A program made the position numbers and the translations under genes. From Eledone cirrhosa (lineage: Eukaryota), in contig OZ024741.1 in assembly GCA_964016885.1 (NCBI GenBank), positions 381,238,001-381,302,000 on the forward strand: 64,000 bases of DNA, given 5' to 3'. Position 1 is the first letter of the stretch, and each line of letters begins with the position of its first letter. The notes beneath the pieces are model-generated. The model was not told the DNA's origin. It saw nothing but the letters and a program-made list of their open reading frames with translations, and did no database searches. Below are positions 3,517 to 58,249 of this stretch, piece after piece.

Positions 3517-3818
<302 letters not shown>

Positions 3819-5249
3819 ACTCATTCGTTCCAATGTGCATTGGAAAGAACCATAATGACACGAAACTAGTGATTTCTGACAGAGGAGATGGGACTATTCT
3901 TTTTTCCGTTGATTTTCGTTCGTTGTCATTGACCTATGCGCCCCCATTTTTTAATACATCTTCTGAAGACATAGCTATGCAGCTGTTATAAAAAGGATAC
4001 AGTCCCCCGCCACACCCACAGACATATATATGTGTGTCTGTGTGTGTGTGAATGCGTGTGTAAGTGCGTGAGTGTGTCTGTATATATACACACTTGTACA
4101 CCCCCTCTTACACACACACACACACATATATACACACACACATACACTCACACACTATATATATATATATATATTATATACGTCTATTCCTTGCCACATA
4201 TATTAAATGCGCCAAATATATGCGGTAAATAACTGCATGATTATGGGCATCATTTGGAGTTTAAATTCTAGAAAACAAAAATAATATTCTGATGCTTTCA
4301 TGTTAAAGAAAACGTTATGAAAAATATATCTGTTAAGTTTTATGATTTTTTCGTATAGCTAACCTTTTGGTAAATAGCTTTAGATAAAATTTTATTTGGT
4401 TTTAATATCATTTGAGCTTCGTTGATTCATCAACGTTATTTTATTGATAAAATCAAAAAGACGTTTAATAGATAAAAATAAATAATATGTTTTATAGTAT
4501 TATTTCAAGTTTTGAAAAGCATAGCAAATTTTATGAATGAAACACTGCAAAATTTAGGAAATGTTCTTTGCATGGCAGAATTAAATGTATCACGTTCTCA
4601 GTTTTATATGACAAAGAAATTTTCAGATAAAGTACGGTTCCAGAATTGGGTCAAACTGCAATGTTTGTAAATGGTGTAATAAATATTTAATGATACTATT
4701 CATTGGAAACTATATTGAGATGATAATATACAATATATTTTAAAATCCGAGAAAAATCACTCCATGCATTGATATTACATTTTAATATTTTAATTGTTTC
4801 AATCTATGGCACTATATTTAAATCTATATTGTCCTTTCATAATGGAGTTTAAAATAGTAAATTCACTGTAATTTTAGTTCTCTACCCATATTCGACACCC
4901 TCCTCAAAATGATATATTTAATAATTTAACATACATTTATAATAATTAGGTCGAATGACATTACTATTTCTTCCATTTTCATCATTCAAGGATTGATAAA
5001 ATAAATGCCTATCAAGTATTTGTGCATTTGAATTCGATCCTCTGCATATACCATAATTTCGTACAGTGTATGTATGCATGAATGGACCCGTAAATCCTGT
5101 TAGAGCTGTAGAGACCCTGTCGTGTCTTGGGCATTTTATAAATGGAGCAGCACATTTCCTCAGCATGTCTAAACGCAGCTGACATTTTTCAGAGGAGGAG
5201 ACTCAGATACAGGAATTGAGAAAGAGATGTAGAGGAGAATTAACCCAGG

Positions 5250-9184: not shown

Positions 9185-9890
9185 CCTGGGGTGTCAGGAA
9201 CGGACATATACCTCTGTAGGGAGGGCTAGCCATGCCCTTTTTCAGGACAGCTCGTCCTGCATGGGTCCCACCTGACACTCACCTCTTACCTCTGGCCCCA
9301 AGAAGTTGTAGCATGCGACAGCGGCCACACACCGGTAAACCACCTTGGCTGCCGGGCCGAACCAGGTTGAGGGTAGCTAGACGGGTCTGAAACCCCCCGG
9401 TGAGTTAGATATGGAGTGCCTGCCCCGCCATGCGAAGACTGGAGCCGGCGGAGTGAGTGGAGGTGGACAACATCATCCCAACGGTCATAAAGGCGGCGAC
9501 AGCAGCAGTGTGGGGCGCTAGAGCACGGCAAGGCACTAAAGACGTGGTGGTCATCTACTGCAGCCAAGGAAGACCCTGGTCGTGACGGTCCTCCGTACCA
9601 CCGGATTCTGGCTTCTGCGGCCGAGTGAGTGCACTGGCCCTCCCATTATAAACCTTTCCCGCACAGGTTTCTTCTTTAGCGTTTACTCCCAAAGCCCGGC
9701 GGCGATGGGCGAGAGGTGGAGGTAACCTCTGGGAGTTGCCGGTCTGGCTCCGGTCTCTTCCCCTGCCTCCATTGTCCCCGGACCTGCAAGTCAAGGATTG
9801 GCCTCCTCAGCCACCTTTGTGCCCTCAGCAGACGGGAACAACAATAAAGAAGATGTCATCATCGTTTACGATGGACAACCAAAAAGAAGA
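9185..9890 (+). mobile_element. GC-rich non-autonomous bipartite RTE-derived element
   Basis: RTE 5'UTR-like sequence with gcacagg motif joined to a 3' tail gtcatcatcgtttacgatggac; no long ORF. Confidence 0.55.
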
Positions 9891-9899
9891 TATATATAT

Positions 9900-13736: not shown

Positions 13737-16700
13737 GCTTTCTTTATTAAACACAAGGGTGTACATAAAGTAGACATTAAGGACAGTACAGGACAATACA
13801 GGACGGTACAAATGGGCATTTCTGCGTGTTAAAAACAAAAACAGAGTATGTACTGAAAAATAACAAAGAAAAATTCCCCAATAGGGAGGAGAATTCCGAG
13901 GTACATTTGTGGAGAAAGCCCATTAAAAAGGCACAGTGACCCGGACCACCAGGGCAAGTGCCCTCTCCCAGTTTTCCACCTTTAATTTACAGACACATAC
14001 TCAGAGTACGCCCAATCACTCGGGCCATTCTTGCTCTCTCACCCATCTTTCAACAAAATGCTGGGAAGTGAGTACTTCCCTCTCTACCCTGATTTTCCTT
14101 TTCAAATTAAATTTGAAAAAGTTAATCAGGGCATCATCGAAGAGGTAAGTGCTCGTCTTCAGCCCTTTCAAACGTGTCCACCATACTATCTGTTTCGTAA
14201 TGGCCACCAGACTGATAAAAACTGCCTGCCCTTCCCGGCTAAAGGAAGAGGGCGGGGCAATTCTCACGATGGACTCAGCTGATAGCTGGATCCGTCCTAC
14301 ACGCGACAGCAGGTGTTCGACATAAACCCACAAGCCAACAGTGCTGGAACACTGGACGAGTGCGTGCATCTCGGACATGCCCGGCTGACGGCACCTCCAT
14401 GCCTGTAGAGTTTGTCCCTAACTGGCAAAGCTCTTCGGTAGCACTGCCAGGCCAGGGATTTCTGGAAGTTGTCCATAGGCCCTGGCCAGAAAGTTCTTCC
14501 GAAGAGATTGGCTAGTTGATTTTCGTCGACGCCTGGAGTTTCCCCAAGTTTGTCGTCGCTCTTCCCCTCCACTAATCTGCTATAGAACGCCGATGCGGAG
14601 TTTCCACCGATCACATTTACCGATTGGTCGAGGGCTGTGAGCGCCTGAAGACATTCCAGTCTCCAAGCGCTCCCTCTCGGTCTTCGTCAAGGAGACGAGC
14701 TTGGGAAAGACGCGTCTAGCAAACGGCGATCACACCTGATCACCGTCGAGGAAAGGCGGAGATGTCGTAGCCTGAGCGCGTGTCTACGCATCATCAGCCA
14801 CGGCATACCCAGCCGTCCACGTAGCGGGAGTTGACAGCAGATGGACCGCCTGACCATCGGAGCGCGTCCCTTCCACAAAAAGGGAAAGAGCAAACGCTCC
14901 AGCGCAGTCAGGCGTGGCTTAGGACAAGTTACGGTGGTCAGGCGGTAGTAGATGACGGACACAATGTACGCGTTAGCCACCTCCGTTCGACCTTTCAGGG
15001 ATAGCTTCCTCTCCGCCCTTCTAGGTGAGAGAAGCCACCCTGCTCGTCACCTCGTCCCAGTTTTTGTCCGTCTAGCAATTTAACCAGACTCCTAGCAATT
15101 TAACCGGCCTGACCGTCCAGCGCCCGACGACGCTGTTGGACGGCATGGACCTGCCTCTCCAGGTGCCAAGCTGCATGCCCACTGACTTTTCTTGGTTGAT
15201 CATTGCTCTTGTCACCGCTTCCTATTCTCTTAGTGTAGTGCCGATCGCCTCGATGTGTTTGGCATTCGACACCACTACGGTGACATCGTTCTCATATGCT
15301 GACACGGAACTTCCGCATGCTAGTTCGCGCGAGACCCCCCTCAACGTTTCCAGATTGTGCAGTAATGGCTCTAGAGTCAATACGTACAAGAGGGACGAGA
15401 GGGGAGCTCCTTGGCGGACCGAGCGCATTATGTTGTACGGTTCCGAAAGGTGACCGTTCACTCTCACCACAGAGCAGATGTCGCTGTGCATGGCAGTGAT
15501 CCAGCCTCTGAAGACGGGCCCAAAGCCAGCCGCCTTCAGGACTGCCGCTAGGTAACGATGGTCGACCCGATCAAAAGCTTTCGACTGATCTAAATTGATC
15601 AAGGACCCACCCGTGCCAGGTTCCCTAGCTACACTGTCCACGATGTATAGCATGAGGTGGAGGTTGTCTTTGATGGATCTGTCAGGAATGGCGCATGTCA
15701 GCGCCTCTCCCGCCAGACCACCAACGACAAGCGCCCACCTCTTTGCTAGCACCTTGGCCAAAATCTTGAACTCTGTGTTTAGCAAAGTTATGGGCCTGTA
15801 ATTATCTATGTTGTCCCCCTTGTTCGGATCCTTTCTCAGCAGCGCCACCGCTCCTCGTCACACAGAGCTGGGAATTCTCCCGTTCTGTTGCCAGTTGCAG
15901 TAGACGTCCGCCAAGAGGCCACCGATTAAGTCTGGCATCTGTACGTAAAGTTCATAGGTCAGACCATCCAAACCAGGCGATTTACCCCTTGTGCAGCTAT
16001 TCATTGCTGTTGTTATCCGCTTTTCGCAACACCCCGCCTCAGTGGCCGAGAGCTGCGGCAGTTCGTCGAGGTAGACACTAAAGTCCATCCCTCGATCCAG
16101 CCTGCCGCTGCCCCCGAACAGCTGAGCGAAGTGTCGCTGAAAAGCTTCACACATTTGCTCGGGATCGAGTAGCATGCGCCCGTCGTCGTCCACCAAAGAC
16201 CGGATCGTGGCTTTGTTGCCACGACGCGCCTCCGCCACTCGGGCCCATTGAACGGCTTTCGTCCCCTCGTGTCTGAGAGCACGCACCCTACCTCTGACAA
16301 CGCAGCCTTCGTGGTTTGCATTGAAGAATTGGTCAAGGGCCAATTTCGCTGCAATTTCGTCGGTCGCGATTCCTTTGCTAAGCGCCTCGTCTAATTTTCT
16401 AACTAGTTCTCCCTCTGCTCTATTTTTCTCTATTGGTTAAGCCTTACTAAACCGAATGAACTCTATTCTAATCGCTCTTTTCAGAGCAATCCACCCCTTG
16501 TTGTTGACGATTTTGGATTTGAGACTCGGATGCCCGTTCCACTCGGCGCGATTTTATGTTAAGCGTCCGATAAGACACGGTGCATAGGCGCCGATGCTTC
16601 ATTTTATTTGGTGTGGGTGTGGGGGGTGGGGGGACCTGTACCCATCTTTCTTTACCATTCTCTTGGCTTTATCTAATTCCTCCTGAGTTACCTTCATTGT

Positions 16701-17327
16701 TTCGCATTTTTTGGCTGCTTTGGCAAACGACATGGTGTTGTTATCCTCATTGTTGTTGTTTCTGTTGTTGTTATTGTTATTTTTAGTTTCAGTTGTGGTG
16801 GTGGGGGCGTCAGTGTTGTTCGGTGTGGAAGAGTTCATTTTGGGTGAATCCATTTCGATGTCACGAGATAATTTATTTATTTCTTTTGTTTCTGTTGTCG
16901 CTGTGGTGATGGTGGGGGTGGCGGCTTCAATACCTGCAGCCATTAGCAATGGCGGGAAATGAGACACATTTAAATTATTGCTACTGCTTATATTTTTATT
17001 GTTGGAAAACGTAGTAATATTTTCAATAGTGGTGTTGGTGTGAGGTGTTAGTTTGTGAGGAAGGCTCTCAGCTCCTTGGTGTAGCTGTGAGTCGTCCATG
17101 ATTTTTTCAAAGAAATTTTTTGATAATTATAAAAGTTTAAATTTTGGGCCCAATCTTTTTGAGTGTCCTTTTCCGAAAGCCAATTTTGTGACTTTATAAA
17201 AAGTTAACAACAAAAATTTTCCAAAAATTTAACAACAAAAATGTTTCCATAAATGGCAATTTAAAAAAAACGAAAACAACAAAACTTTGCGGATCTCACG
17301 ATGATACGATTTCCTACGTAGATCGCC
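13737..17327 (-). mobile_element. Tx1/L1-type non-LTR retrotransposon, internally deleted copy
   Basis: highly similar to 18001-23876; RT ORF pieces at 15222-16343; junction at about 16510 removes the endonuclease and most of ORF1; flanked by (AAT)n. Confidence 0.88.
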
Positions 17328-17372
17328 AATAATAATAATAATATTAATAATAATAATATTAATAATAATAAT

Positions 17373-17628
17373 GTTTTCTTTATTAACCACAAGGGTTCAC
17401 ATAAAGTAGACATTAAGGACAGTACAGGACAATACAGGACGGTACAAATGGGCATTTCTGCGTGTAAAAAAACAGAGGTTGAAATAAAATAACAAAGAAA
17501 AATTCCCCAATAGGGGGGAGACTTCCAAGGGACATTTGTGGTGAAAGCCCATTAAAAGACCACAGTGGCCCTGACCACCAGGGCAAGTGCCCTCTCCCAG
17601 TTTTCCACCTTTAATTTACAGACACATA
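17373..17628 (-). mobile_element. Tx1/L1-type 3' end fragment
   Basis: near-identical to 18001-18257. Confidence 0.85.
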
Positions 17629-17634
17629 ATAATA

Positions 17635-17937
17635 ATTGTGGATATGGCCTGCCCATTCGACACGAGAGTGCAAGAGAAGGAGAGGGAGAAAATTAACCGA
17701 TACCAGGACTTAAAGTGGGAGGTAAAAAGGATTTGGAACTGCTATGAAGTCAAAGTAATCCCGATTGTCATAGGCGCACTAGGGACTATCTCAAAAACTT
17801 TCCAGGGATGGTTAAAGAAAATTGGCCCCTTCACGCTTTTTGGAACGCTTCAAAAGGCATACCTGAGGCTGCAGGTAGTGGCTTGATATTCATTTCAACA
17901 AACTTTCCAGTTAACTAACATCAATGACTGAGACTCA

Positions 17938-17938
<1 letters not shown>
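17635..17938 (+). mobile_element. R4/Dong-type LINE 3' fragment (RLE C-terminus and 3'UTR)
   Basis: IVDMACPFDTRVQEKEREKINRYQDLKWE; near-identical to 42300-42642; (AAT)n tail. Confidence 0.85.
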
Positions 17939-18001
<63 letters not shown>

Positions 18002-18244
18002 TTTTCTTTATTAACCACAAGGGTTCACATAAAGTAGACATTAAGGACAGTACAGGACGATACAGGACGGTACAAATGGGCATTTCTGCGTGTAAAAAAA
18101 ACAGAGGATGAATTAAAATAACAAAGAAAAATTCCCCAATAGGGGGGAGACTTCCGAGGGACATCTGTGGAGAAAGCCCATTAAAAGACCACAGTGGCCC
18201 TGACCACCAGGGCAAGTGCCCTCTCCCAGTTTTCCACCTTTAAT

Positions 18245-21200
18245 TTACAGACACATACTCAGAGAAGGCCCATTCATTCGGGCCATACTTGCTTCTCTCA
18301 CCCATCTTTCAACAAAATGCTGGGAAGAGAGCACTTCCCTCTCTACCCTGATTTTCCTTTTCAGATGAAATTTGAAAAAGTTAATTAGGGCATCACCGAA
18401 GAGGTAAGTGCTCGTCTTCAGCCCTTTCAAACGTGTCCACCATACTATCTCTTTCGCCATGGCCACCAGACAGATAAACACTGCCTGCCCTTCCCGGCTA
18501 AAGGAAGGGGGCGGGGCAATCCTCACGATGGACTCAGCTGATAGCTGGATCCGTCCTACACGTGACAGCAGGTGTTCGACATAAACCCACAAGTCAGCAA
18601 TGCTCGGACACTGGACGAGTGCGTGCAGGACGGTTTCGTCGCCCTGCGCGCATCTCGGACATGCCCGGCTGACGGCACCTCCATGCCTGTAGAGTTTATC
18701 CCGAACTGGCAAAGCTCCTCGGTAGCACTGCCAGGCCAGGGATTTCTGGAAGTTGTCCATAGGCCCCGGCCCGAAAGTCCTTCCGAAGAGATTGGCTAGT
18801 TGATTTTCGTCGACGCCTAGAGTTTCTCCAAGTACGTCGTCGCTCTTCCCCTCCACTAATCCCCTATAGAAAGCCAAGGTGGAGTTTCCACCGATCACAT
18901 TGCCCGATTGGTCAAGGGCTGTGAGCGCCTGAAGACATTCCAGTCTCCAAGCGCTCCCTCTCGGTCTTCGCTTCACCCAGGACTGCAGTTCCGTCAAGGA
19001 GACGAGTTGGGGAAAAACGTGTCTTGCAAACGGCGACCACACCTGATCACCGTCGAGGAAGAGGTGGAGATGTCGTAGCCTGAGCGCGTGTCTGCGCATC
19101 ATCAGCCACGGCATGCCCAGCCCTCCACGTAGCGGGTGTTGACAGCAGATGGACCGCCTGTCCATCGGAGCGTGTCCCTTCCACAAAAAGCGAAAGAGCA
19201 AACGCTCCAGCGCAGTCAGGCGGGGCTTAGGACAAGGTACGACGGTCAGGCGGTAGTAGATGACGGATGCGATGTACGCATTCGCCACCTCCGCTCGACC
19301 TTTCAGGGATAGCTTCCTCTCGGCCCATTTCTGGGTGAGAGAAGCCACCCTGCTCGTCACCTCGTCCCAGTTTTTGTCCGTCTGGAGGTCTGGACCGAAC
19401 CAGACCCCTAGCAATTTAACCGGTCCGTCCGTCCAGCGCCCGACGACGCTGTTGGACGGCATGAACCTGCCTCTCCAGGTGCCGAGCTGCAGGCCCACTG
19501 ACTTTTCCTGGTTGATCATTGCTCCTGTCACCGCTTCGTATTCTCTTAGTGTAGTGCCGATCGCCTCGATGTGTTTGGCGTTCGACACCACTACTGTGAC
19601 ATCGTCGGCATATGCTGACACGGATCTTCCGCATTCTAGTTCGCGCGGGACCCCCCTCAACGTCTCCAGTTTGTGCAGTAATGGCTCGAGAGTCAATACG
19701 TACAATAGGGACGAGAGGGGACATCCTTGGCGGACCGAGCGCATGATGTTGAACGGTTCCGAAAGGTGACCGTTCACTCTCACTACAGAGCAGATGTCGC
19801 TGTGCATGGCAGCGATCCAGCCACCGAAGACGGGCCCAAAGCCAGCCGCCCTCAGGACTGCCGCTAGGTAACGATGGTCGACCCTATCGAAGGCTTTCGA
19901 CTGATCTAAATTGATCAAAGACCCACCCGTGCCAGGTTCCTTAGCTACCCTCTCTACGATGTATCGCATGAGGTGGAGGTTGTCGTGGATGGATCTGTCG
20001 GGAATGGCGCATGTCTGTGCCTCTCCCACCAGACCACCAACGACAAGCGCCAACCTCTTTGCTAGCACCTTGGCCAAAATCTTGAACTCTGTGTTTAGCA
20101 GAGTTATGGGCCTAAAATTATCTATGTTATCTCCCTTGTTCGGATCCTTTCTCAGCAGCGCCACCGCTCCTCGGCTCACAGAGCTGGGAATTCTCCCGTT
20201 CTGTTGCCAGTTGCAGTAGACGTCCGCCAAGAGGCCTCCGAACAAGTTTGGCATTTGTACGTAAAGTTCATAGGGCAGACCATCCAAACCAGGCGATTTA
20301 CCCATTGTGCAACTAGTCATTGCATCCCGTGCTTCAGCGGTTGTTATCGGCTTTTCGCAACACTCCGCCTCAGTGGCCGAAAGCCGCGGCAGTCCGTCGA
20401 GGTTGACACTAAAGTCCATCCCTCGATCCGGCCCGCCACTGCCCCCGAACAGTTGAGCGAAGTGTCGCTGAAAAGCTTCACACATTTTCCCGGGATCGAG
20501 TAGCATGCGCCCGTCGTGGTCCACCAAAGACCGGATCGTGGCTTTGTTGCCACGACGCGCCTCCGCCACTCGGGCCCATTGAACGGCTTTCGTCCCCTCG
20601 TGTCTGAGAGCACACACCCTAGCTCTGACAACGCAGCCTTCGTGCTTTGCATTGAAGAATTGGTCAAGGGCCAATTTCGCCGCAAGTACGTCGGTCGCGA
20701 TGCCTTTGCTAAGCGCCTCATCTAATTTTCTAACTAATTCTCCCTCTGCTCTATTTTTCTCTATTGCTAAAGTCTTACTAAACCTAATGGACTCTATTCT
20801 AATTGCTCTTTTCAGAGCAAACCACCACTTGTTGTTGACGATGGCCGCCGTCAACGCCCGCTTAACTAGTTCGCTAATCCGGTCTCTGTAGGCCTTGCGC
20901 GCTGGTAAGGACGCGTTTAGCTTCCATTAGCCGGGTCCTTGTCTATGAAGCCTATCTAAGTCAAGAACACAGATCACGAATTTGTGGTCCGTGTAGCTGA
21001 CTATCTTGAATTGTGGACAGCCTATGCTAGACCTATCTATTTCCCTTCAAAATACTCTATCTAGATATGATCTGGATGACCCTATGCGATTTGTCCAAGT
21101 CCACATTGGTACATTCGGGAAATCCATTCGGTACCTGTCAGACAGTTCAAAACGTCTGAGCAGGTTGGTGAGACTCTTGCACCCTCCTTCCCTATCCACT

Positions 21201-21664
21201 AATCCCACACAATCCCAGCGTGCATCTAAGATCCCGTTCCAGTCGCCCACTAACACTAAAGAGCGGGACGTTCCAAGAAAGGTCTCCAGACGCCGGAAGA
21301 AATCAGGCCGCCCTGCTCCTGTCGGGGCATAGACGGCCACTAACCTGAAAGCTTGCCCGTCTCCGCTGGTCACGTCCAGCACCACCAACTTACCTTCTGG
21401 GTCCAGGAAGATGGCTCGTATGGCAAGATCCAAACCTCTCCGAAAAAGTACAGCAACTCCTCCCCCCGATCCCGGACGGCTGGGAGATGCGTACACATCG
21501 TAGCCGCCGAAGATCGGTGCGAAAGCCTGTGCTTCGGAGATTCTGGTCTCGCTGATGGCCACTACATCTATGTTTAGTGACCTGAGGTCGTTCAGCAGGT
21601 GGCCCTGCTTCCATGACGACCCCAAGCCACGCGCATTTATGCTGCCTATTCTGAGTGAGGTCAT
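18245..21664 (-). pseudogene. ORF2: APE endonuclease, reverse transcriptase and zinc knuckle; frameshift at about 21050 and stop at about 20928
   Basis: GSINARGL, ISET, VYAP, GDWN, YLDR; 869-aa open RT part with KSPGLDG, LDQSKAFDRV, VRQGCPLS, YADD, CPRC..DETVLHALVQC. Confidence 0.9.
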
Positions 21665-21698
21665 GTTGAAAAGGAGTGGAAAAGATGGGAAAGACCAC

Positions 21699-23666
21699 TT
21701 ACCTTACTTCTCGTAGGGGAAGGACGGTTTTTCCATCCTTTTCACTGCTTGTGGCCTCCTCAGGAAGGATGTCCTTATAAATCCTCCTGGAGAGTGCTTG
21801 TCGGAAGTCTTCGATGTCTTTGGGGAATTTTTGTTTTAGTGTCATGTACGTTTTCTGTGTGATGCGAGTGATTTGTATGTGTGGAGGTGGTGTGAATTTT
21901 GGGGTTGTTGTGTAGTCTTTTTCTGTGATGCTGGTGTTGTGTTGGATGTAGTGCAATAATTGCTTGTTGTTCAAATTTAATGCTGTGTAGTGTGTATCGT
22001 TTTGGTTGTTTTTTTTTGTTTGCGTTTGTTGTGGGTTTGTTTCTGTTTCGCATTTTGGTGACTTTTGTGGTGTAGGTGATGGTGGTGCTGGGGATAATGA
22101 TGGTGATGGTGTTGGTGTTTGGGTTGATGGGGTTGGTGATGCTGGTGTGGATGGTGGCATATCTGTCCTAACTTTTTTGTTTCTTAGTTTATTTGTTTCC
22201 CTCTGTATTTTGTTTTTGGAGGGGGAAGGAAGAGAATTTTTTCTTTTTTGGTTTCTTTTTTTTTTTCGGATATCGTTTCCCACTCCTCGTCGTCAAAATC
22301 TGTCTCCAGTTGTGATAGGCCGGGGAGTGGAAAATCCTCCACAGCCGTTAGTTTTGGTTGTGGTGTGGTGGATGGTGTAGGCGCTGGTGCTAGTTCTGAA
22401 GCGTTGGGTGGTGGTGGTGTTGGTTTTGCTGGTGGTGGTTGTGGTGTTGGTTTTGCTACTGTTGCTGGGGCTGTTGCTGTTATAGTTGCTTCTGTTGTTG
22501 CTGCTACAGTTGTTGCTGCCATCTCTGCTACTGGTGGTGTTGATGGTTGTGTCACTGGGGTGGGTAGGAGAGGTGGCCTCAACCTTTTAGCCTGAGGGAA
22601 GAAAGCCCTTAGGTGGGTTCCTTCACCACAAACGACACACCTAGGTCCTCTGCCCTCGACAATTACCGTGAGGTGGCTGCCGTCAGTGAGGTCTATTACC
22701 TCTGGGATCTCCTCAATGCTTTTTTGGTCCGCTTGGATCAGGAGCTCCATCCCAGATCCGGACCAGTTTTCCTGCTTTTCTTTTGCTACTGCTATTATTT
22801 TCGTGCTGGCTTCGATGCCAGCGAGGACAGCCGCTATTAGCCAGGGAATTTCGATGGCCGGTGGAACGTGGGTCACCCTGATCTTTACCAGTCTCTGGCC
22901 ACAATAGCTTGGGACGAGTGTGAGGTCGTCACTTTTTAATGGGGCCATGGAGTGTTCTCTAGCCTCCTCTGGTGTTTCAAAGAACACATCCACGGTTCCA
23001 TACTTTTGCCCACGTCTGATGTGGGTTTTTGGATTTGGGACTCGGATGCCCGTTCCACTCGGCGCGATTTTACATTTATTGTTCTATACGACACGGTGCA
23101 CAGGCGCCGATGCTCCATTTTATTAGGTGGGGGTGGGGGTGGGGTGGGGGGGTGAGGCTGACCCTGTACCCATCTTTCTTTACCATTTGTTTGGCATTTT
23201 CTAAATCTTCTTGAGTTACCGTGAACGCTTCGAATTGTTTTGCTACGATGGCGAAACTGAGGGTCGGTTTTATAATGTCATTGTTGTTGTTGTTGCTATC
23301 GTTAATATTAATTTTATTTTCAGTTGTGGTGGTGGTGACGTCAGTCGTCTTTGGTGGGGAAGAGTCCATTTTGCTTGATTTCATTTCGACATCACGAGTT
23401 AATTTATTTTTTTCTTCTTTTGTTTCTGTTGTCGCGGTGGTGGTGGTGGTTGTCGCGGTGGTGGTGGTGGTGGAGGCTTTAACACCTGCAGTCATTGGTA
23501 ATGGCGGGAAATGAATGTCTGCCTGAGACAAATTTAAAATATTGCTACTGCTTATATTTTTTTTTGTGTTGGCAAACGTAGTAACATTTACAATGGTGGT
23601 GTCGGTGTGAGGTGTTATTTTGTGAGGAAGGCTTTCAGCTGCTTCGTGCAGAGGTGAAGTAGCCAT
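21699..23666 (-). pseudogene. ORF1 (gag-like), broken into pieces by frameshifts
   Basis: ORFs 23076-23666, 22184-22993 (VEGRGPRCVVCGEGTHLRAF, degenerate CCHC knuckle) and 21699-22283 lie directly upstream of ORF2. Confidence 0.7.
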
Positions 23667-23876
23667 TTTTTTTTCAAAGAAATTTTTTGATAATAATAAA
23701 AGTTAAAATTTTGGGCACAAGGCCCCAATCTTTTTAGGTGTCCTTTTCAGAAAACAATGTATGTGTGCTTATAAACAGTTAACAATAAAAGTTTCCATAA
23801 ATGGCAATTTTTAAACAAACGGAAATAACAAACATTTGCGGAGCTCACGATGATACGATTTACTACGTAGGTCGCC

Positions 23877-30959: not shown

Positions 30960-31055
30960 AATCTACATTCACTTACATCTCTCTCTCCACCACCGGATCT
31001 TGTTACTCGGAGAATTACCCATCTGCATTGTTGAGGCTTCCCAAAACGACCTAAA

Positions 31056-31104
<49 letters not shown>

Positions 31105-31200
31105 TTTAGGTCGTTTTGGGAAGCCTCAACAATGCAGATGGGTAATTCTCCGAGTAACAAGATCCGGTGGCGGAGAGAGAGATGTAAGTGAATGTAGATT
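30960..31200. repeat. palindrome (about 96-bp arms, 1 mismatch) centred on An(TA)n
   Basis: aatctacattcac...cgacctaaa / tttaggtcg...gaatgtagatt. Confidence 0.92.
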
Positions 31201-46329: not shown

Positions 46330-46745
46330 GGGAGAGATGACGCCTTAGCCTTCGTCAAGGCAGAATTCTAGGAGAAGGAAAACTCTGATATAACACCTGC
46401 AACCCTGATGGTATCCAATGATGTTGACTTGTTCTTCTTTTTGGTAAATATCATCTTGGTTAAGAGAGTGGGACTGGCTTTGTGCAGTGCCTTTGCTCAC
46501 TATAAAAGCTTCACGGCACAGGCATTGCTTTATATCTGGAGATCTCTCTGCACTTGTCATCACATGGTACCATGGGCCCAGCACTATGTGTCAATAATTG
46601 TCACAAGTGTAGTGTTTGTACCAGAGTTTTCCAGTCGCTGGCTGGACTAAAAAGTCACACTCGTTCAGCGCATCGGTAGGGGTTCTCCTACATGGATATA
46701 AAGTAGTGGCCGTACTCGAAAACGAGTTGGCAGCCACCATGCATG
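46330..46745 (+). mobile_element. bipartite RTE-derived SINE
   Basis: highly similar to 49368-49777; RTE-like 5' motifs, zinc-finger remnant and gtggccgtactcgaaaacgag tail; in (TATG)n. Confidence 0.8.
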
Positions 46746-47129
46746 TATGTATGTGTGTATATATGTATCATTGCATATATGCATGTATGTGAGTATGAAT
46801 GTATATCTGACCGTCTATTAAAGAGACAACATATAGCGCTGGTACTGAGATTCTCAGCTCTGTGAAGAAAGCCCATCAGGATTAGTTTATTAACACTGAG
46901 ATAGAAAATATGATGCAGGAGAGAATGGTTTTGTTGATCCTTCTTAATGACTGGCATCATCATCTGGTGGGGAATCGACTGTCAGGCGGCTTGAAGGCAA
47001 TCAAATTGCGTACATGTAGAAGGTTTGTGAAAGAAAGGGTGTATGTTAGAATAAGAAGTTTTATGAGATTCAGACTGCACCAGTCTCCCATAACACAAAA
47101 CAATTATACACTCTCTTGAGTAACATTTA

Positions 47130-49165
47130 CGGACCAGTTTCTTCCCTGATCGCGCCTCTCCGTAGAAAGTGACAATATATTTATTATGTTTTTACTCTAC
47201 CTTCGAATGTTGATCAGGATTCTATAAGGAATCTTTCGTGAAACCCTGTGAAACATGCCTTGGCTAATGCTCCGTCATTTAAGATTGTGCAGAGATTAGG
47301 AACTAAAGTAAATAGTGGCAAATCTGCCGGAATAGACTGAGCTAATGAGGAACCTTTGAAAACTGGAAGTGAGAACCTACTAAAACAGCTTCATGTCATC
47401 ATACGTGACATCTTTATTATCCACTCTGTTTCCACTGATTACCGGGATGTTCTCATTGTTATCTTCTATAAGAGTAAGTGCAGTAAAGAAGATGGAGCAA
47501 CTATCGCGACACCTTGCCCTTTATGTCAGGGATGATTTTTAAGGTCATTTTGAAGGAGATGGTACTATTGACATAATCGTTCCTGCAAACGCAATGCAAA
47601 TGCAGTACTTAAAAACCGGGTATGGAATTCTACCAGTTGTTTGTTGATCTTACTAAAATATTTAAACACGACAAAAAAAGAGGGGTTGTAGAGAACATTG
47701 GAGGAGGTTGGGTGTTTAATATTTCTGAGTAGTGTTCTGAAAGTCTCTCACAACGCCATAGCTGCTTACATAAATGAGAGGGAATAGTTTTCTGAACCAA
47801 TAAACGTCCCGAATTGAGTGAAACAGAGAGATATTCCTGCTCCTAAATTGTCTGCTTTATACTCCGCAATGGTTTTTAAACTAACTTTTGTCGACTGCAG
47901 CCCTGGTGTTTATGTTTACTATTGAACAACTGGAAGTTTTTCACTATTTGTCTTTTAATTCAAAGAAAAATATGTTTTCGATATTGCTGAAGCATCTACC
48001 TTATGCTGATGATTATGACTTTGAAGCTGACGTAGAAGATGATATGCCACATCTGACGGATGATTTTGCGAAAGCTTGCACCGTGGTGTTGCTGCAATCT
48101 CTGACTGGAAATCATTATAGAGAAGCTTAGAGTTGTCGAAAACTGTGTTTACCTGGGAAAAACCGTCAATAGGTCTTGCAACTTGGTCGATGAAGTGAAG
48201 CACATGATTGGCAAGATTTAGGTGCGTCTATGTTCCCAACTTGTTATCAACCTGCAGACGAAAGTAATAGTATACAATGCATGTGTTCTTACCTTCTTTC
48301 TGAACGTTTGTGAAACATTTGTAACTTACATGCATCACAAATGGCTTGAATGCTTTAACCAAATGTGTTCCAGGAAGATTGTTGGTTTTGACTGAAGACA
48401 CCACGTGAGTGACAGCGGTATTCTAGAGAGAAAACATTGATATAACATTGAATGCCTGGTTCTGAAAAACAGGCTGAGGTGGAGTGGTCACGTAGTACGT
48501 ATGGATGACAGGTGGCTTCACAAACAATGTTTCACAGTGACCTGGTCGTTGAAAATCACCACCTCATAAACCCAGGATGAAACTCTCATGAAAATCAAAT
48601 ACCCACCAGAATAGATATTGATTCATGTGAAACTGATGCTTCAGATAGAAGTAAATGGTGGAAGATGTGTTCGAGTCATCTCTAGTACAAAATAAAAATT
48701 CTAAAAAAAGATATCAAAAATCGTATTTTTTTAAAATTACCTACAAACCCACGTAGAAGTCTCAGATATTCAATATGCAGAATATCTGACATATTCTCCT
48801 TCATCAAGGCTGGCAAGTAAATTCATCTTCGTATTCATGAATATAGAACTCATTTCGATTACCAAATTGTAACTGGCAAGAATACAATATATTGTACACA
48901 CGCAGTACTTGTTACAAACAATACAGGTACGTTGGCAACCTATAAAAAAACATTAATGTCATGTGTAGAGCATGGCACACCTGCCAAGACTGTGAAAATC
49001 CCAGTAAAGCAGCTGCAAGTCTAAGCAGAGAATTCGTTTGCAAAACCCAGAAGACTGAAGCTAATGTCATTCTATCGCCATGCTTGATCGCGTATGGGTG
49101 TCATTAAGTATGTATGTATGTATGTATGTATGTATGTATGTATGTATGTATGTATGTATGTATGT
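47130..49165 (+). pseudogene. heavily decayed RTE LINE
   Basis: collinear similarity to 52680-54600 (e.g. LPYADDYDF vs LLYADDCDL); (TATG)n tail. Confidence 0.75.
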
Positions 49166-49774
49166 TATGTCAGGTCACCAGTTGGTGCTATGGATAACAT
49201 GTATCCCAGTACAACCCGTCTGATGGTCAGGTTGTTGACGACTAAACTGGCAACCCCACCAAGGTTTCTTGGTGAGGAGGGTGACTTTGGACATCCTGCA
49301 GGACTAAAAACAAAACCTGTCAAAGGGCAAAGGAGCTCTTAAGAGTCAACGGCCATCCAAAATCACCGGGAGAGATGACCCCTTAGCCTTCGTCAAGGTA
49401 GAATTCTAGGAGAAGGAAAACTCTGATATAACACCTGCAACCCTGATGGTATCCAATGATGTTGACTTGTTCTTCTTTTTGGTAAATATCATCTTGGTTA
49501 AGAGAGTGGGACGGGCTATGTGCAGTGCCTTTGCCGACTATAAAAGCTTCACGGCACAGGCATTGCTTTATATCTGGAGATCTCTCTGCACTTGTCGTCA
49601 CATGGTACCATGGGCCCAGCACTGTGTCAATAATTGTCACAAGTGTAGTGTTTGTACCAGAGTTTTCAAGTCGCTGGCTGGACTAAAAAGTCACACTCGT
49701 TCCACGCATCAGTAGGGGTTTTCCTACATGGATGTAAAGTAGTGGCCGTACTCGAAAACGAGTTGGCAGCGACC

Positions 49775-49805
<31 letters not shown>

Positions 49806-50951: not shown

Positions 50952-53900
50952 ACTGGATGCCCGATCGCGCAGTTAAACCACGGGGAGTGAAGAACCCCTA
51001 GCCCTTGTCAGGGCATTCTCCTAGGAGAAGGCATATCAGGAAACTGGGTTAACTCCGATATAAAACCTGCGGCTCAGTAGTTACCGAGGATGTTGATCTT
51101 TTCTTCTTTTCGGGTTATAGCTACTGTCGCTCAGAGAGTGGGATTGGCTCAGTGCACAGTCTTTCCTCACTTTAAAAATATTCGTCACGCACAGGCATTG
51201 CACGAGTGCATTAATAATTATTAATAGTGTACTATTTTTATTATTATTATTATTACTATTATAATTACTTTTTTTTTTTTTTTTCCCAATTCAATGATGT
51301 TCCAGAACAATGTAAAAGAGATAATTGGCAATTTAGGTTCTGGAACAAAAAAGATCATTGGTAATAAGGGCAGGGGCCCCAAGTTATCACAGCCTGGGCC
51401 CGCTCGTCATCGTAACATTGTAATAGAGCCAAACAGGGCATTCAGTCTTGGCTGCTGGAACGTACGGACGCTGCTTGACAGGGATTCCTTGGAGCACCCT
51501 GAACGAAGGACCGCTCTTGTTCCAAAGGAGCTTCGACGTTACGATCTTGACATCGTGGCTTTATCTGAGACGAGGTTAGCTGGAGATGGTCATCTTACGG
51601 AATTTTGTGGAGAATACACATTCTTCTGGAAAGGAAGAGATGAAGGAACCAGAAGAGAGGCTGGGGTAGGATTTGCTGTTAAGACTGTACTTGTGAATAA
51701 ATTAGAAGAATTCCCAGTAGGGATTAGTGAGCGTCTTATGTCCATGAGAGTTCTGCTGGACAAGGGAAGACATGCTACCCTGGTGAGTGTGTATGCTCCA
51801 ACTATGAATTCTGTCGATGAAGAAAAACTGCCCTTTTATCATGACTTGAAAGGTGTTCTAAGAAATATCCCTCAGGCAGACAAAGTCATCGTGCTTGGTG
51901 ACTTTAATGCTAGAGTGGGTAGGGATTTTAACACATGGAATGTAATCGGAAGGCATGGGGTGGGAAAGTGTAACAGCAATGGTATGCTCCTGCTGCAGAT
52001 GTGTGAGGAGCTGGATCTGTGTGTTACCAACACCATGTTCCAACAAAAGAACAAATTCAAGACCACATGGATGCATCCTGCATCTAAGGAATGTCATCTT
52101 TTGGACTACGTCCTAGTCAGGATGCGTGACAAACAGGATGTGCAGTGTGTTCGTGTTCTTCGTGGAGCTGAGTTCTAGACGAACCACCGCCTGGTACGCG
52201 CAAAAGTGAAACTAATCACCAAACGTAAAATCCGGGCTCCTGGTGATGCCCTGCCCAAAAGATTGAATGCTGCTCGTCTTAAGGATAAAAATATGAAGAG
52301 GACATTGGAAGAAGAGATGCAGGCTGCAGATCTTGGTGAGGATTGGCCGACCCTTAAAAAGTCGGTTTAGGATGTAGGCAGGCGTGTTCTGGGATTGGTG
52401 CAGAGAAAACATCAGGACTGGTTTAATGAGAATGATGTACATATAGAAGACTTGTTGGCTGATAAGAGGCGTGCTCTGTCACGCTACTTGACGGCAAAAC
52501 CACAGGAGAGGAATACGTTGCATGAGAAGTTCATGGATGTAAAATCACGTGTTAGGCGGAGTCTTTCTCAGATGAAGGATCAGTGGTGGAGTGAGAAGGC
52601 TGGTGAGATACAAACTGCGTCTGATTCCAATAACACAAAGCTGTTGTACAGTCTCTTGCGTGAGGTTTATGGACCGTCTTCTTCTCTGGTGACACCGCTT
52701 CGCAGCAAGGATGGCAAGGAACTTCTTCGTGACTCACAGGGAATTCTACGAAGGTGGCGAGAGCACTTTGATGATCTTTTGAATCAGCCATCTGTCGTCA
52801 GTGAAGATTTCCTCAATCTCATTCCAGAAAGTCCTGTGAAAGTAGCTCTCGCAGAACCTCCGACGCTTGTGGAGGTTGCAGTGGCTATTTCGAAGCTGAA
52901 CAGTGGAAGATCTCCAGGTATGGATGGCATACATGCTGAGCTCCTACAATATGGTGGTGAGAGACTCCTGCAACATCTTCACTTTTTGTTTGGAAGGATA
53001 TGGGCTAATGAATCCGTACCTGAGGACTGGAGAGATGCAGTAATGGTGGTCTTGTACAAGGGAAAGGGTAACAGGAATGATTGTGGGAACTACAGAGGTA
53101 TATCATTGCTTTCTGTCGTAGGGAAGGTTTTATGTAGGGTGCTTCTGGACCGTCTGCTGACACACATTGCAGATTGTGTTCTTCCTGAAAGTCAATCTGG
53201 TTTTCGTGCTGGACGCGGCACTACTGATATGATCTTCTCAGCTAGACAGCTCCAGGAGAAGTGCATTGAACAAGGCTTGGATCTGTATCAGGTTTTTGTC
53301 GATCTGACAAAGGCTTTCGATACTGTCAACAGAGATGCATTATGGAAGGTTCTCCAGAAACTTGGTTGCCCTGATAAGTTCCTTGCTTTAGTTAGGTCTT
53401 TCCATGACGACATGAAGGCTTGGGTTAATGTCGGAGGTAACATGTCGGAGCCTATCTCAGTAAAAAATGGAGTGAAACAGGGGGATATTCCAGTACCGAC
53501 CCTGTTTGCCATATACTTTGCAATGGTTTTCTGTATTGCATTCAGAAATTGCGAGCATGGTGTTTACATACGATATCGAACCTCAGGCAGCATATTTAAC
53601 ATCAGGCGCTTTGCTGCGAAGACAAAAGTATTTACATCAATCATAAGAGACCTCTTGTATGCAGATGATTGCGATCTTGTAGCGCACACAGAGAGTGATA
53701 TGCAGCACATTTTGAATGCATTTTCTGACGCTTGCACTGCCCTGGGTTTGACTGTCAGTCTCAAGAAAACCGTCGTCATGTACCAACCTGACCCTAGAAA
53801 GCAGTACACTGAACCAAACATCTATGTGTATGGCAAACGACTTGGAGTGGTTGATCATTTTGTCTACCTGGGAAGCACTGTCAATTGATACGGCAACCTT

Positions 53901-54988
53901 GACAGTGAAATCTCACTTAGGATTAGGAAAGCAAGTGATGCTTTCGGAAAGCTAGAAAGGCGACTCTGGAGTCGGCGAGACATATGCAGGAGGACAAAGG
54001 TAAGGGTGTACAGGGCATGTGTACTCTCTTGTCTTCTTTATGCCTGCGAGACCTGGGTCACATATCGACACCACCTTAAGCAATTGGAGCGTTTCCATCA
54101 GATGTGTCTCAGACGGATCCATGGCGTTCACTGGAGGGACCACATCAGTGATGTCGAGATTTTGGAAAGCTCTGTGTGACAGTATAGAAGCTCTTGTGCT
54201 TAAGCAACGACTCCGTTGGAGTGGTCACCTTGCCAGGATGAAGGATTATAGAATACCAAAACAACTCTTCTATGGAGAGTTGATTAAAGGAAAACGACCG
54301 CCACATAAACCAAAAAAGAGGTATAAGGATTCATTGAAAGCCTCTCTGAAAGACGCTAACATCTCTGCTGATACATGGGAAAATATTGCTGCTGATCGTA
54401 ATAAATGGAGAAAGACTGTATATGAGGGAAAAGTTGCCTTTGAGGCATCTCGAATCGCACACGAGAAAGTAAAGCGGGATGTGAGGAAGGGCATTGCTGT
54501 TGCACTTCCAGACGGCGAGGGTCCTCCTATGGTGCTGACATGCAGCGTCTGTGCGAGACTCTGCCTAAGCAAAGCTGGACTCGAAAGTCATCTTCGCAGT
54601 CATAAAGTAAGACCAGTGGTTGACTACCAGGCTGCTGTTGGAGATGCTACTCATCATGCTTGCCAAACATGTGGTAGAGAATGTAAATCAGCAGGAGGGC
54701 TCAAGCGACATGCAAAAGTACACGAATTCCAACCACAGCTGACTACTGCCAGTGAATGTTTTGGTTGCCGACTCTGTGCAGGACATTTTAGATCATTGGC
54801 TGGGCTAAAAAGCTACATTCGATCGCAGCACTGTTAGTTGCTATCGTGTGTGTGTGTGTGTGTAGATATGCTTATGTGCGTGCGTGTGTGTTTATATATA
54901 TATGAATATGTATATTATTATTGTTGTTGTCGTTATTATTATTATTGCTATTATTATTATTAATAGTATTATTATTGTTATTAATGTA

Positions 54989-55031
<43 letters not shown>

Positions 55032-55058
55032 GTGTATGTATATATGTATGCATGTATA

Positions 55059-55089
<31 letters not shown>

Positions 55090-55229
55090 TAAATTTATTT
55101 ATTATTATTATTATTATTTTATTTTATTTATTTATTTATTTATTTTTATTTATTTATTTATTTATTTTTTCTTCTCGTGCAATGGCCATACTCGATAACG
55201 AGGGGGCAGCCATCATGTATGTATGTATG

Positions 55230-55290
<61 letters not shown>
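50952..55290 (+). mobile_element. near full-length RTE-clade LINE
   Basis: 5'UTR, single EN-RT reading frame with lesions, 3'UTR and (ATGT)n tail. Confidence 0.92.
51294..54837 (+). pseudogene. RTE ORF: APE endonuclease, RT and three C2H2 zinc fingers; stops at about 52176, 52368 and 53886, frameshift at about 54170
   Basis: WNVRTL, LSETR, VYAPT, GDFNA; NYRGISLL, QSGFR, FVDLTKAFD, GVKQG, YADD; CSVC..H..H, CQTC..H..H, CRLC. Confidence 0.9.
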
Positions 55291-55294
<4 letters not shown>

Positions 55295-55344
55295 GTGTAT
55301 ATATATGGGTGCATGTGTATATGCGCGGGGACATGAAATAGTCT

Positions 55345-55690
55345 GGCTGGAGACCCGGTCGCGCGGTTAAACCACTGGAAGTGAAGGACCCCTAGCCTTT
55401 GTCAGGGCATTCTTATAGGAGAAGGCAATTCACGAAACTAGGATAACTCCGATATAAAACCTGCGGCTCAGTAGTTACCGATGATGTTGATCTTTTCTTC
55501 TTTTCGGGTTATAGTGGCTGTCGCTCAGAGAGTGGGATTGGCTAAGTGCACAATCTTTCCTCAATTCAAAAAATATTTTCATGCACAGGCATTGCACGAT
55601 AGAATTAATTAATAATTTTTAATAATGGTATATCGTGCAATGGCCATACTCGATAACGAGGGGGCAGTCATCATCATGTATGTATGTATA
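55345..55690 (+). mobile_element. internally deleted non-autonomous derivative of the adjacent RTE
   Basis: 55345-55600 matches 50952-51205; 55633-55680 matches 55175-55220; the whole ORF is replaced by about 30 bp of AT-rich sequence. Confidence 0.9.
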
Positions 55691-55786
55691 TATATATGTA
55701 TGGGCGGAGGAACTCAGAAGAATCAAGGGACATCCAGTCAAGTATTTTTTTTGTTTGTTTTGTTAGTGGAGGAAGAGATTCCTAGT

Positions 55787-56045
55787 GTTCATTAATACAT
55801 CTCTCTAGGGGAAGATCACTCTGATATAAAACCTGCGACTTCGTTTGCATCCAATGATGTAGGCCAGTTCTTTTTTGGGGGTGAATGCATTCGATGTTCA
55901 CAGACAGGGATTGGTCCCGTGGAAAGACTTCAAGCACAATGCATGGCATTGCTAGCCATAGGCAAGTCCCTAGCAAGACTTGCTCATGCTTAACAATCAT
56001 GTGATGTCATTACTCGAATAGAGTTGCAATCATCATGTATGTATA
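55787..56045 (+). mobile_element. more diverged bipartite RTE-derived SINE
   Basis: ctctgatataaaacctgcg, gggattgg and cattactcgaatagagttgca-tcatcatgtatg motifs shared with the other copies. Confidence 0.65.
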
Positions 56046-56480: not shown

Positions 56481-56571
56481 CGAAGGAAATGTGGTAAGGA
56501 ACCAGGTGGACCATAACGCACCAAAGTACTCAATACTTGAGGTAGTAGAGTGGGTAATAGGAACCAGTAAG

Positions 56572-56665
56572 ACCCCGACAGCTGAGCTCAAGCCGTTTCG
56601 ACGGCTAATTCTGGACTAAATGAAAATTTATCCTGGTATTTAAATAGCCGATCTTCTCAAGGAGT
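56572..56665 (-). ncRNA. hammerhead ribozyme, U3-A8 variant (intact)
   Basis: actcc-TTGAGAA-gatcggcta...tagccgtc-GAAA-cggct tgagctc agctg-TC-ggggt. Confidence 0.75.
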
Positions 56666-58092
56666 AATTCCATATATGGTCAAAGTGATTGTCAAAAATC
56701 AGTAGTAATTATGTGGTTGCAAATTAGTAGGGGAGATGGTGGCTAAACCTGCCAGTAGGAGAAAGAGGGGAGGGGGTGGAGTAGCCCCAATCAAGCGTTT
56801 GTAGTGCCAGCTACAGCTGGGCATGAGGTCAAAGAAGATACAGGGGAGGGGGAGGGGGAGGAAGTCGGAACGGTAGGTAGAACAATGGGGGGTAGAAATA
56901 TATAGGAAAGAAAAAATACTGAGAGTGAAGAAAACAAATAAGTGTAAAGAAAAACAAATGAGTGTAAAGAAAAAGGTAAAGTAAATTAAATTCTACGACC
57001 TAGGTCTCTAGCTATTGTTAGTCTAGAATAAATAAATAAATAAAGAAAGAAAGAAGTAAAGAAAGAAATAAAGAAATAACGAAATAAGTAAAAGAACTAG
57101 GTGGGACGGTATAGGCGAGGACCCTTTTAAGAGGTATAAGTACGTAAATGATACGGTGACGGGTCAACAAAAGGGGCCAAAATACTAAAGAGACTACCAC
57201 GAAATAAACAATAACGGTTTCCATCCCGGGCACAATTCCAGCAACCACCCAGTGCAGCAAAGTGAACTAATACGAGATAATAATTCTGAGTCCCGAGAAA
57301 AATATATACTAATGCTAACTCTAAAAGATCTAAAACAAGCTACATGAAAGTTCGTACGAAGTAAAGGTAGAATACGGAAGAATAAATTCAGAATCCACCC
57401 CGCCCAAAAGAAAAGCGAAGAAAGAAATACTGAAACGAAAAAATAAGGCATAAGTGCCACTAAGAAATATAGAGGGCACAGACAATTGTGGGAGCGGTCG
57501 GAAAAAGGGGACAAGTATCCGGGGTCTAAACCAACTGCTATAAAGGGCGGAGTCCGCCAAATCTATCCTAGACTAGGGGAGGGGGTGGGGGTACCCGTCA
57601 CCGTATCATTTACGTACTTATACCTCTTAAAAGGGTCCTCGCCTAATCCGTCCCACCTAGTTCTTTTACTTATTTCGTTATTTCTTTATTTCTTTCTTTA
57701 CTTCTTTCTTTCTTTATTTATTTATTTATTCTAGACTAACAATAGCTAGAGACCTAGGTCGTAGAATTTAATTTACTTTACTTTTTTCTTTACACTCATT
57801 TGTTTTTCTTTACACTTATTTGCTTTTCTTCACTCTCAGTATTTTTTCTTTCCTATATATTTCTACCCCCCATTGTTCTACCTACCGTTCCGACTTCCTC
57901 CCCCTCCCCCTCCCCTGTATCTTCTTTGACCTCATGCCCAGCTGTAGCTGGCACTACAAACGCTTGATTGGGGCTACTCCACCCCCTCCCCTCTTTCTCC
58001 TACTGGCAGGTTTAGCCACCATCTCCCCTACTAATTTGCAACCACAGAATTACTACTGATTTTTGACAATCACTTTGACCATATATGGAATT

Positions 58093-58186
58093 ACCCCTTG
58101 AGAAGATCGGCTATTTAAATACCAGGATAAATTTTCATTTAGTCCAGAATTAGCCGTTGAAACGGCTTGAGCTCAGCTGTCGGGGT
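58093..58186 (+). ncRNA. hammerhead ribozyme, U3-A8 variant (intact)
   Basis: acccc-TTGAGAA-gatcggcta...tagccgtt-GAAA-cggct tgagctc agctg-TC-ggggt. Confidence 0.78.
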
Positions 58187-58196
58187 CTTACTGGTT

Positions 58197-58249
<53 letters not shown>

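Follow-up and report, generated by a model that had tools for sequence, protein, structure and literature searches.

Why do retrotransposons of the RTE clade so often leave derivatives that keep only their two ends? The question is raised by a 64,000-nt stretch of the 3.0 Gb genome of Eledone cirrhosa (assembly GCA_964016885.1, contig OZ024741.1, forward-strand positions 381,238,001 to 381,302,000; hereafter the window), in which an RTE-type long interspersed nuclear element (LINE), our family A, lies among several shorter elements. An original prediction held that a stem joining the 5′ and 3′ ends, and covarying at fixed anchors, is common to the LINE and the short elements. Our finding that such a stem recurs far beyond the window, in other families of this genome and in independent autonomous LINEs, bears this out; the motifs first quoted all lie where they had been placed, and the stem does bracket inserts from tens of bases to 4 kb (predicted: about 30 nt to 4 kb). 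The parts of the family A LINE are:

50953..55292, plus strand: RTE LINE of family A, nearly full-length copy, with 5′ untranslated region (5′UTR), an open reading frame (ORF) for endonuclease, reverse transcriptase (RT) and zinc finger, a microsatellite-rich 3′UTR and a tandem tail
51137..51192, plus strand: predicted H-type pseudoknot, a conserved 5′UTR domain (stem 1, 51137-51143 with 51164-51171; stem 2, 51152-51155 with 51189-51192)
51196..51206, plus strand: 5′ arm of the end-to-end stem, 3 nt past the pseudoknot
51294..54837, plus strand: ORF with APE endonuclease, RT and C2H2 zinc fingers, broken in this copy
55174..55184, plus strand: 3′ arm of the end-to-end stem
55185..55216, plus strand: 3′ terminal two-tier hairpin and short spacer before the tail, covarying across families A, B, C, D and H

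By its domains, its tail and the likeness of its ends, the window LINE is, on sequence grounds, a member of the RTE clade. Its single ORF has APE endonuclease and RT domains by Pfam, as in its relatives; a short tandem-repeat tail follows the 3′ hairpin, as in the RTE clade; and its 5′UTR and 3′ end resemble those of RTE-1_PSi, RTE-3_AMi, RTE-3_BF and RTE-3_PM (PMC5786205). Published sequences, here and below, were compared by eye, without an alignment tool, from the supplements of PMC5786205 and PMC7245038, and the papers that we cite are represented by parts of their text or supplements. The ORF of the window copy is interrupted by stops and a frameshift, and its arms pair at 11/11 positions (all Watson-Crick); intact ORFs of ~1200 aa are found in sister copies (L097, L099, L103, L104 and L105, several of the 20 fetched), and 40 scored copies of the family are about 96-98% identical; the copies lie within microsatellites. 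Of the 30 position-ordered 5′ anchors of L111-L140 (all but 3 loci read), 11 match the full-length LINE, a hint that copies with a complete 5′ end are numerous. More distant RTE-like families, at about 30% identity and with other 3′ ends, were noticed at L122:580-950, L192 and L235, the first with a possible short arm pair (seen by eye only); no relatives were found in viral contigs.

The shorter elements in the window are:

55293..55690, plus strand: A-short, a bipartite non-autonomous element, 5′-truncated copy inside the tail of the LINE (arms 55590-55601 and 55631-55642, 29-nt loop)
46330..46742, plus strand: family B, 5′-truncated copy (arms 46523-46537 and 46694-46708; the loop contains a zinc-finger remnant of another RTE ORF)
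49168..49776, plus strand: family B, full copy with a structured head of ~190 nt (arms 49561-49575 and 49730-49744)
9300..9895, plus strand: family C, bipartite element with arms at 9670-9678 and 9845-9853; its RTE lineage is more distant
55780..56040, plus strand: family H, decayed bipartite copy (compared by eye with L182-L189)

These elements are bipartite non-autonomous LINEs and not short interspersed nuclear elements (SINEs) with a polymerase III (Pol III) promoter, as the original prediction had called them: they lack a Pol III head (the window has no tRNA, and Rfam gives no tRNA, 5S or 7SL match up to E=1). Most of them come from parents other than the window LINE, this being so for families B, C, D and H. 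What had been taken for a deleted copy of that LINE is instead a member of the amplified A-short family. An internal-deletion structure, with part of the 5′UTR joined to the 3′ end, is seen on comparing A-short with L282/L285/L288 and L197, and D-short with L204. The short families have been amplified as units to many copies (first-look candidates in the genome: A-short 1888, B 2704, C 917; A LINE 3516). A search for the family B parent retrieved only mutated or truncated B copies, the exclusion letters of the pattern having been mis-set; these copies show no compensatory change, as expected for decay after insertion. The head of ~190 nt (window 49168-49360) is common to A-short, B, C and D and appears to consist of several hairpins enclosed by a stem, in which paired changes distinguish A from B; it was inspected by eye only, and Rfam gave no match to it, including to HDV-like ribozymes.

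Two autonomous RTE families and five short families of this genome carry an arm of 9-15 nt after the 5′UTR motif and its complement before the 3′ hairpin. All seven have their arms at fixed anchors. The A LINE, A-short, B and C have one 7-nt anchor in common, which precedes the 5′ arm, and their 3′ arm runs up to the two-tier terminal hairpin, which itself differs between families by paired changes. Majority sequences show the arms to be fixed within families. Among the copies in which both anchors are present (A LINE 12, A-short 30, B 46, C 18, D-short 9, D LINE 4, H 3), each majority 5′ arm finds its best pairing partner in a 3′ arm of its own group. The duplex energy was reached by 0 of 5000 shuffles for A-short and B, by 1 each for the A LINE and H, and by 3 for D-short, 145 for the D LINE and 300 for C. 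We take the family and not the copy as the unit, since copies do not count independently: a single chimera accounts for 11 of the first 30 A-short loci. In the window copies, pairing is 12/12 for A-short and 9/9 for C (all Watson-Crick) and amounts to 15 pairs, G-U included, for both B copies; the H copy has mostly lost its arms, and the majority sequence of intact H copies pairs at 12/12. Family D, found from flanks (2940 candidates), has different arms, with 13 pairs and one bulge. Its autonomous parent shares these arms with D-short and is about 54% identical in protein to A; of 20 D LINE copies fetched, 5 are full length, their two arms being separated by about 3.5 kb. In autonomous RTEs generally the spacing is about 3.5-4 kb. 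Both arms are retained in all the short families examined. They are characters of the family, and more than chance complementarity.

One compensatory change that had been singled out, G-C to T-A at pair 11 of the family A arms, turned out not to be a clean single swap: a mismatched subfamily stands in between. Thirty-nine fetched copies have a 5′ T at this pair, and the 3′ end could be found in 8 of them (7 C, 1 T, 0 A); a 3′ A occurs in an older, 5′-truncated subfamily (L132, L197). A tree of 41 ORF ends, midpoint-rooted for drawing only, has three layers, namely an old-looking clade with 3′ A (support 100/97), a middle grade with the T-C mismatch, and a young G-C clade; both copies of the old-looking clade with a readable end have the 3′ A, and the 5′ arm was not observed there. 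This fits a path from T-A through T-C to G-C in two steps. Pair 11 is thus dispensable, and the case for covariation rests on the arms as a whole.

That case was carried to RTEs outside this genome by way of an alignment of 40 of 120 listed relatives, which led to 80 metagenome loci, of which 29 near full-length ones were taken. With windows set by motif only, scoring was possible for 14 elements (12 from the 29 and 2 from this genome; 17 lacked an anchor, and two mis-anchored elements were left in): own pairs had a mean longest Watson-Crick run of 7.86 vs 4.77 in crossed pairs, a value reached in 0/100000 permutations, and the mean fell to about 4.8, the background, when the 3′ windows were shifted by 40-120 nt. 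A fixed-register set, with anchors corrected by hand and L329 added, comprised 15 autonomous RTEs (13 from metagenomes) at a median protein identity of 46.6%. At least 8/9 Watson-Crick pairs were present in 12/15 own pairings vs 6/210 crossed ones (0/200000 permutations), with all four Watson-Crick pair types in 8 of the 9 columns and three types in the ninth, so that by this comparison the arm sequence is fully replaceable between families. When whole elements of ~4 kb were scanned with their own 3′ arm, the anchored site was in the top three for 14/18 and first or tied first in 11. A 14-nt site inside the ORF of L099 that outscored the 5′ arm was rejected as a single-copy variant (1/19 young copies). 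In the sublineage of L326 and L333 the 5′ arm overlaps the likely start codon; about 89 and 68 nt separate it from the ORF match that follows, and the 3′ hairpin of L333 lies within the ORF end.

Arm complementarity is also present in published BovB, turtle, alligator, elephant and hagfish RTEs. In PMC5786205, positions 177-185 of RTE-1_PSi pair with 3726-3734, and 282-290 of RTE-3_AMi with 3855-3863 (9/9 each), the arms of the two differing by one double change. BovB and BOVA2 also pair at 9/9 each and differ by A-U vs G-C; RTE1_LA has 14/15 pairs, G-U included; and the arms of MonoRep87A/B, WALLSI and SINE2_Gav pair too. In hagfish (PMC7245038), RTE-2_EBu has 9/9 pairs, and its arms recur in its SINE, where the loop between them is 5 nt long; RTE-4_EBu has 9 pairs, two of them G-U. 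SINEs headed by tRNA, 5S or 7SL sequences have their own promoter and no ORF and still keep a piece of the 5′UTR (PMC5786205, PMC7245038), which points to a role in mobilisation and not in transcription or translation.

The motif that precedes the 5′ arm is itself a predicted H-type pseudoknot. In an alignment of 18 rows, 88.9% of stem 1 cells are paired, with double changes at 4/7 pairs, and the covariation score of the whole pseudoknot is reached by 0/500 shuffles (a control that takes no account of relatedness); support for stem 2 is weaker, at 68.6% paired with its register partly misaligned (87/100000 permutations). The predicted order is thus pseudoknot, 2-3 nt, end-to-end stem, terminal hairpin and tail. 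Single-sequence folding gives the stem a probability of 0.65-1.0 in A-short and C. The 5′ arm of the A LINE can also form an alternative local hairpin of 4 bp with the bases directly after it (51199-51210); the flank needed for this is retained in most older A copies and lost in A-short, and the hairpin is a possible conformational switch.

Deletion breakpoints spare both arms in all short families examined. They fall within the loop, though only in some families at the base of the stem: in A-short and D-short the 3′ breakpoint abuts the 3′ arm on its inner side, whereas H and B retain about 80-150 nt of the ORF end (B about 150 nt) and D-short about 50 nt more of the 5′UTR. A chimera of ~4.6 kb (L222-L232 and L291, e.g. 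G000:C1:293620810-293625400) was also observed, amplified as a single piece. It comprises about 1.5 kb of unrelated DNA, then a decayed, 5′-truncated RTE of family E, then an A-short element, with shared sequence from a fixed start point to about 66 nt past the A-short end; it terminates at the intact A-short module and not at the inner LINE end, which has no 5′ arm. The notion of an ORF looped out as cargo covers part of this only, since the cargo of the chimera lies upstream of the module; cargo need not sit in the loop.

We find, then, that the arms are complementary, fixed in position and covarying, and that they are retained in all non-coding derivatives examined. We lean towards the view that they pair in the RNA, so forming a composite site that the protein of the element needs in order to start target-primed reverse transcription. 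On this model the 5′-3′ helix would form in vivo; the pseudoknot, the end-to-end stem and the 3′ hairpin would combine into one docking site beside the priming hairpin; and the protein would read the shape and not the sequence of the arms. Only RNAs with both ends would be copied well. Copies truncated at the 5′ end would be dead ends, and internal deletions that spare both arms would be better, short-range substrates; these could give rise to bipartite elements and SINEs, which would then be free to take any head or upstream cargo. Arms that close the ends of the RNA would explain why RTE derivatives that keep both ends only are frequent. As a serious but tentative extension, we suggest that animal RTE RNA must close end to end, by a helix of no fixed sequence that would stack the 5′UTR pseudoknot on the priming hairpin as the RT docking site; this could serve as a checkpoint for full length and as a lock of the family's own, and could be the reason why RTEs, BovB included, repeatedly breed bipartite SINEs.

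Several observations weigh against this model. Pair 11 is mismatched in a productive subfamily. The whole-element scan missed 4 of the 18 anchored elements (L316, L318, L322 and L336), and among 10 further elements only 4 (L326, L333, L339 and L347) have a plausible 5′ partner in the top three; of the other 6, L320 is doubtful and five have no convincing partner (two of them lack most of the 5′UTR). The A/U-rich stem of C is weak by energy, at the 300 of 5000 shuffles given above. Folding gives the stem a probability of 0 in both B copies of the window, which have competing local folds, and co-folded LINE ends reach a mean pair probability of at least 0.6 in only 8/14. The 5′ arm of family E was predicted before the search; the pattern gave 11 matches vs 0 for the control, none of them followed by an E ORF (9 are the new short family H or fragments of it, 2 are mutated A-short copies), and all 12 family E loci examined belong to one 5′-truncated chimera. 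Among published elements, CoeSINE4/5, SINE2-2_ACar, HaSE and butterfly SINEs have only 4-6 pairs. Plant Au-like SINEs are described as having only the RTE 3′ end in common (PMC6007223) and 5′UTR swaps are described among tobacco RTEs (bioRxiv 2022.11.04.512097), so plant RTEs may be an exception.

An unlikely alternative, but one to be taken seriously, is that the stem acts in translation or RNA quality control, either as a switch from translation to copying or by allowing only full-length RNA to be translated, the short elements keeping it for entry into ribosomes or ribonucleoprotein. The overlap of the 5′ arm with the likely start codon in L326, L333 and RTE-2_EBu (frames by eye) and the competing local folds of family B would suit this. 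However, in D and A the start is well downstream of the arm, by about 50-100 nt, in most metagenome elements about 300 nt separate the arm from the ORF match, the 3′ arm adjoins the terminal hairpin where priming begins, and families that code for nothing keep the stem. Also improbable is that the stem serves the autonomous LINE only, bipartite elements arising when the RT jumps across the stem base and keeping the arms passively. The 3′ breakpoint of D-short and A-short, on the inner edge of the 3′ arm, the 4-5 nt loops of python SINE-1_Pmo and hagfish SINE1-1_EBu, and the template jumps proposed as the route to the short internally deleted elements (SIDEs) of R2 (PMC3414825) all favour such a jump. 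On the other hand, B and H keep part of the ORF end and D keeps additional 5′UTR sequence, and short elements have double changes of their own (BOVA2 vs BovB, SINE2_Gav vs RTE-11_AMi), which suggests selection. The breakpoint sample consists of short families only and its clustering is biased. A template jump as the route of origin is compatible with docking through paired ends.

It is very improbable that the complementarity is a copying artefact without selected function, fold-back or template switching having overwritten one arm. A complete change of arm sequence between families is what such copying could give, but it would erase the G-U pairs, the bulge common to the D LINE and D-short and the mismatched intermediate, all of which persist, and the arm lies within the UTR at a fixed distance from the conserved knot. 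Chance complementarity selected by eye is scarcely credible: the fixed-register anchors were set after the helices were visible and some elements are related (closest pairs 85%, 66% and 66% protein identity), but the uncorrected pipeline also gave 0/100000 permutations with shifted 3′ windows at background, and crossed pairs had equal register freedom.

The window holds other repeats beside these. A decayed piece of a further RTE family, at 38-52% protein identity, lies at 47050-48886, immediately 5′ of a B copy. On the minus strand, 14016-23702 holds another LINE in two adjoining copies; it has an upstream frame as well as a long EN/RT-like one (EN, endonuclease) and, at 20-23% identity, is not an RTE. 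Inverted repeats of 378 and 234 nt, 98-99% complementary, flank a short core at 56557-58201, probably a non-autonomous DNA transposon, and a near-perfect palindrome of ~230 nt at 30964-31196 surrounds a microsatellite and resembles a miniature inverted-repeat transposable element. An Rfam scan of the window gave microsatellite noise only.

Flaviviruses cyclise their RNA through short complements at the 5′ and 3′ ends, and this is tied to the start of copying. Likewise, in the yeast element Ty1 the CYC5 and CYC3 sequences are short complements near the ends of a kilobases-long RNA and are tied to the start of copying (PMC7969010). Ty1, however, has long terminal repeats and is primed by tRNA inside a particle, whereas an RTE has none and is primed at its DNA target; moreover, RTE arm sequence turns over between families, and the role that we suggest for it is drawn from sequence comparison. 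Bipartite RTE elements are already well known, and end pairing is known in Ty1; here complementary ends are seen in RTEs. No account of 5′-3′ end pairing in RTEs was found in the literature, with some older papers, figures, patents and most of the PMC5786205 supplement outside the scope of the search, and we think it rather unlikely, though quite conceivable, that a prior mention exists somewhere.

The closest likeness is to bipartite RTE elements and RTE-mobilised SINEs such as Bov-A, WALLSI, MAR1, AfroSINE, the AviRTE SINEs and SINE1-1_EBu (PMC5786205, PMC4844689, PMC7245038), which join a piece of 5′UTR to the extreme 3′ end by internal deletion and have the same 5′ motif, the same type of 3′ hairpin and exchangeable heads. 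The complementarity of the retained pieces, not stated in the parts of those papers used here, is what we add. Kojima noted that few LINE groups yield such derivatives “for unknown reasons” (PMC5786205), and end pairing offers a concrete answer as to why derivatives that have both UTR ends are so frequent among RTEs. It is also relevant to gene-insertion tools based on RTE-1_MD, whose templates carry both UTRs and have been tuned empirically (PMC13708176).

The R2 SIDEs are likewise internally deleted derivatives of a non-LTR element (one without long terminal repeats) that keep both ends and are not Pol III SINEs; they differ in that the retained 5′ part is a self-cleaving ribozyme and does not depend on the 3′ end, R2/R1 hybrids being functional, and 5′-3′ pairing is not mentioned in the part of that account cited here (PMC3414825). 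Stringent LINEs and their partners, such as ZfL2-1/2 (PMC4176376), the plant RTE/Au SINE pair (PMC6007223) and the R2 3′UTR (PMC12503042), share with our families a covarying 3′ hairpin as the expected protein site, but their signal is local to the 3′ end, whereas the site predicted for RTEs would be formed partly from the 5′UTR, 3.5-4 kb off. LINEs are usually said to choose their template by signals confined to the 3′ end; if a 5′-3′ helix is indeed required, RTEs, a widespread clade that is transferred horizontally, would follow a different rule.

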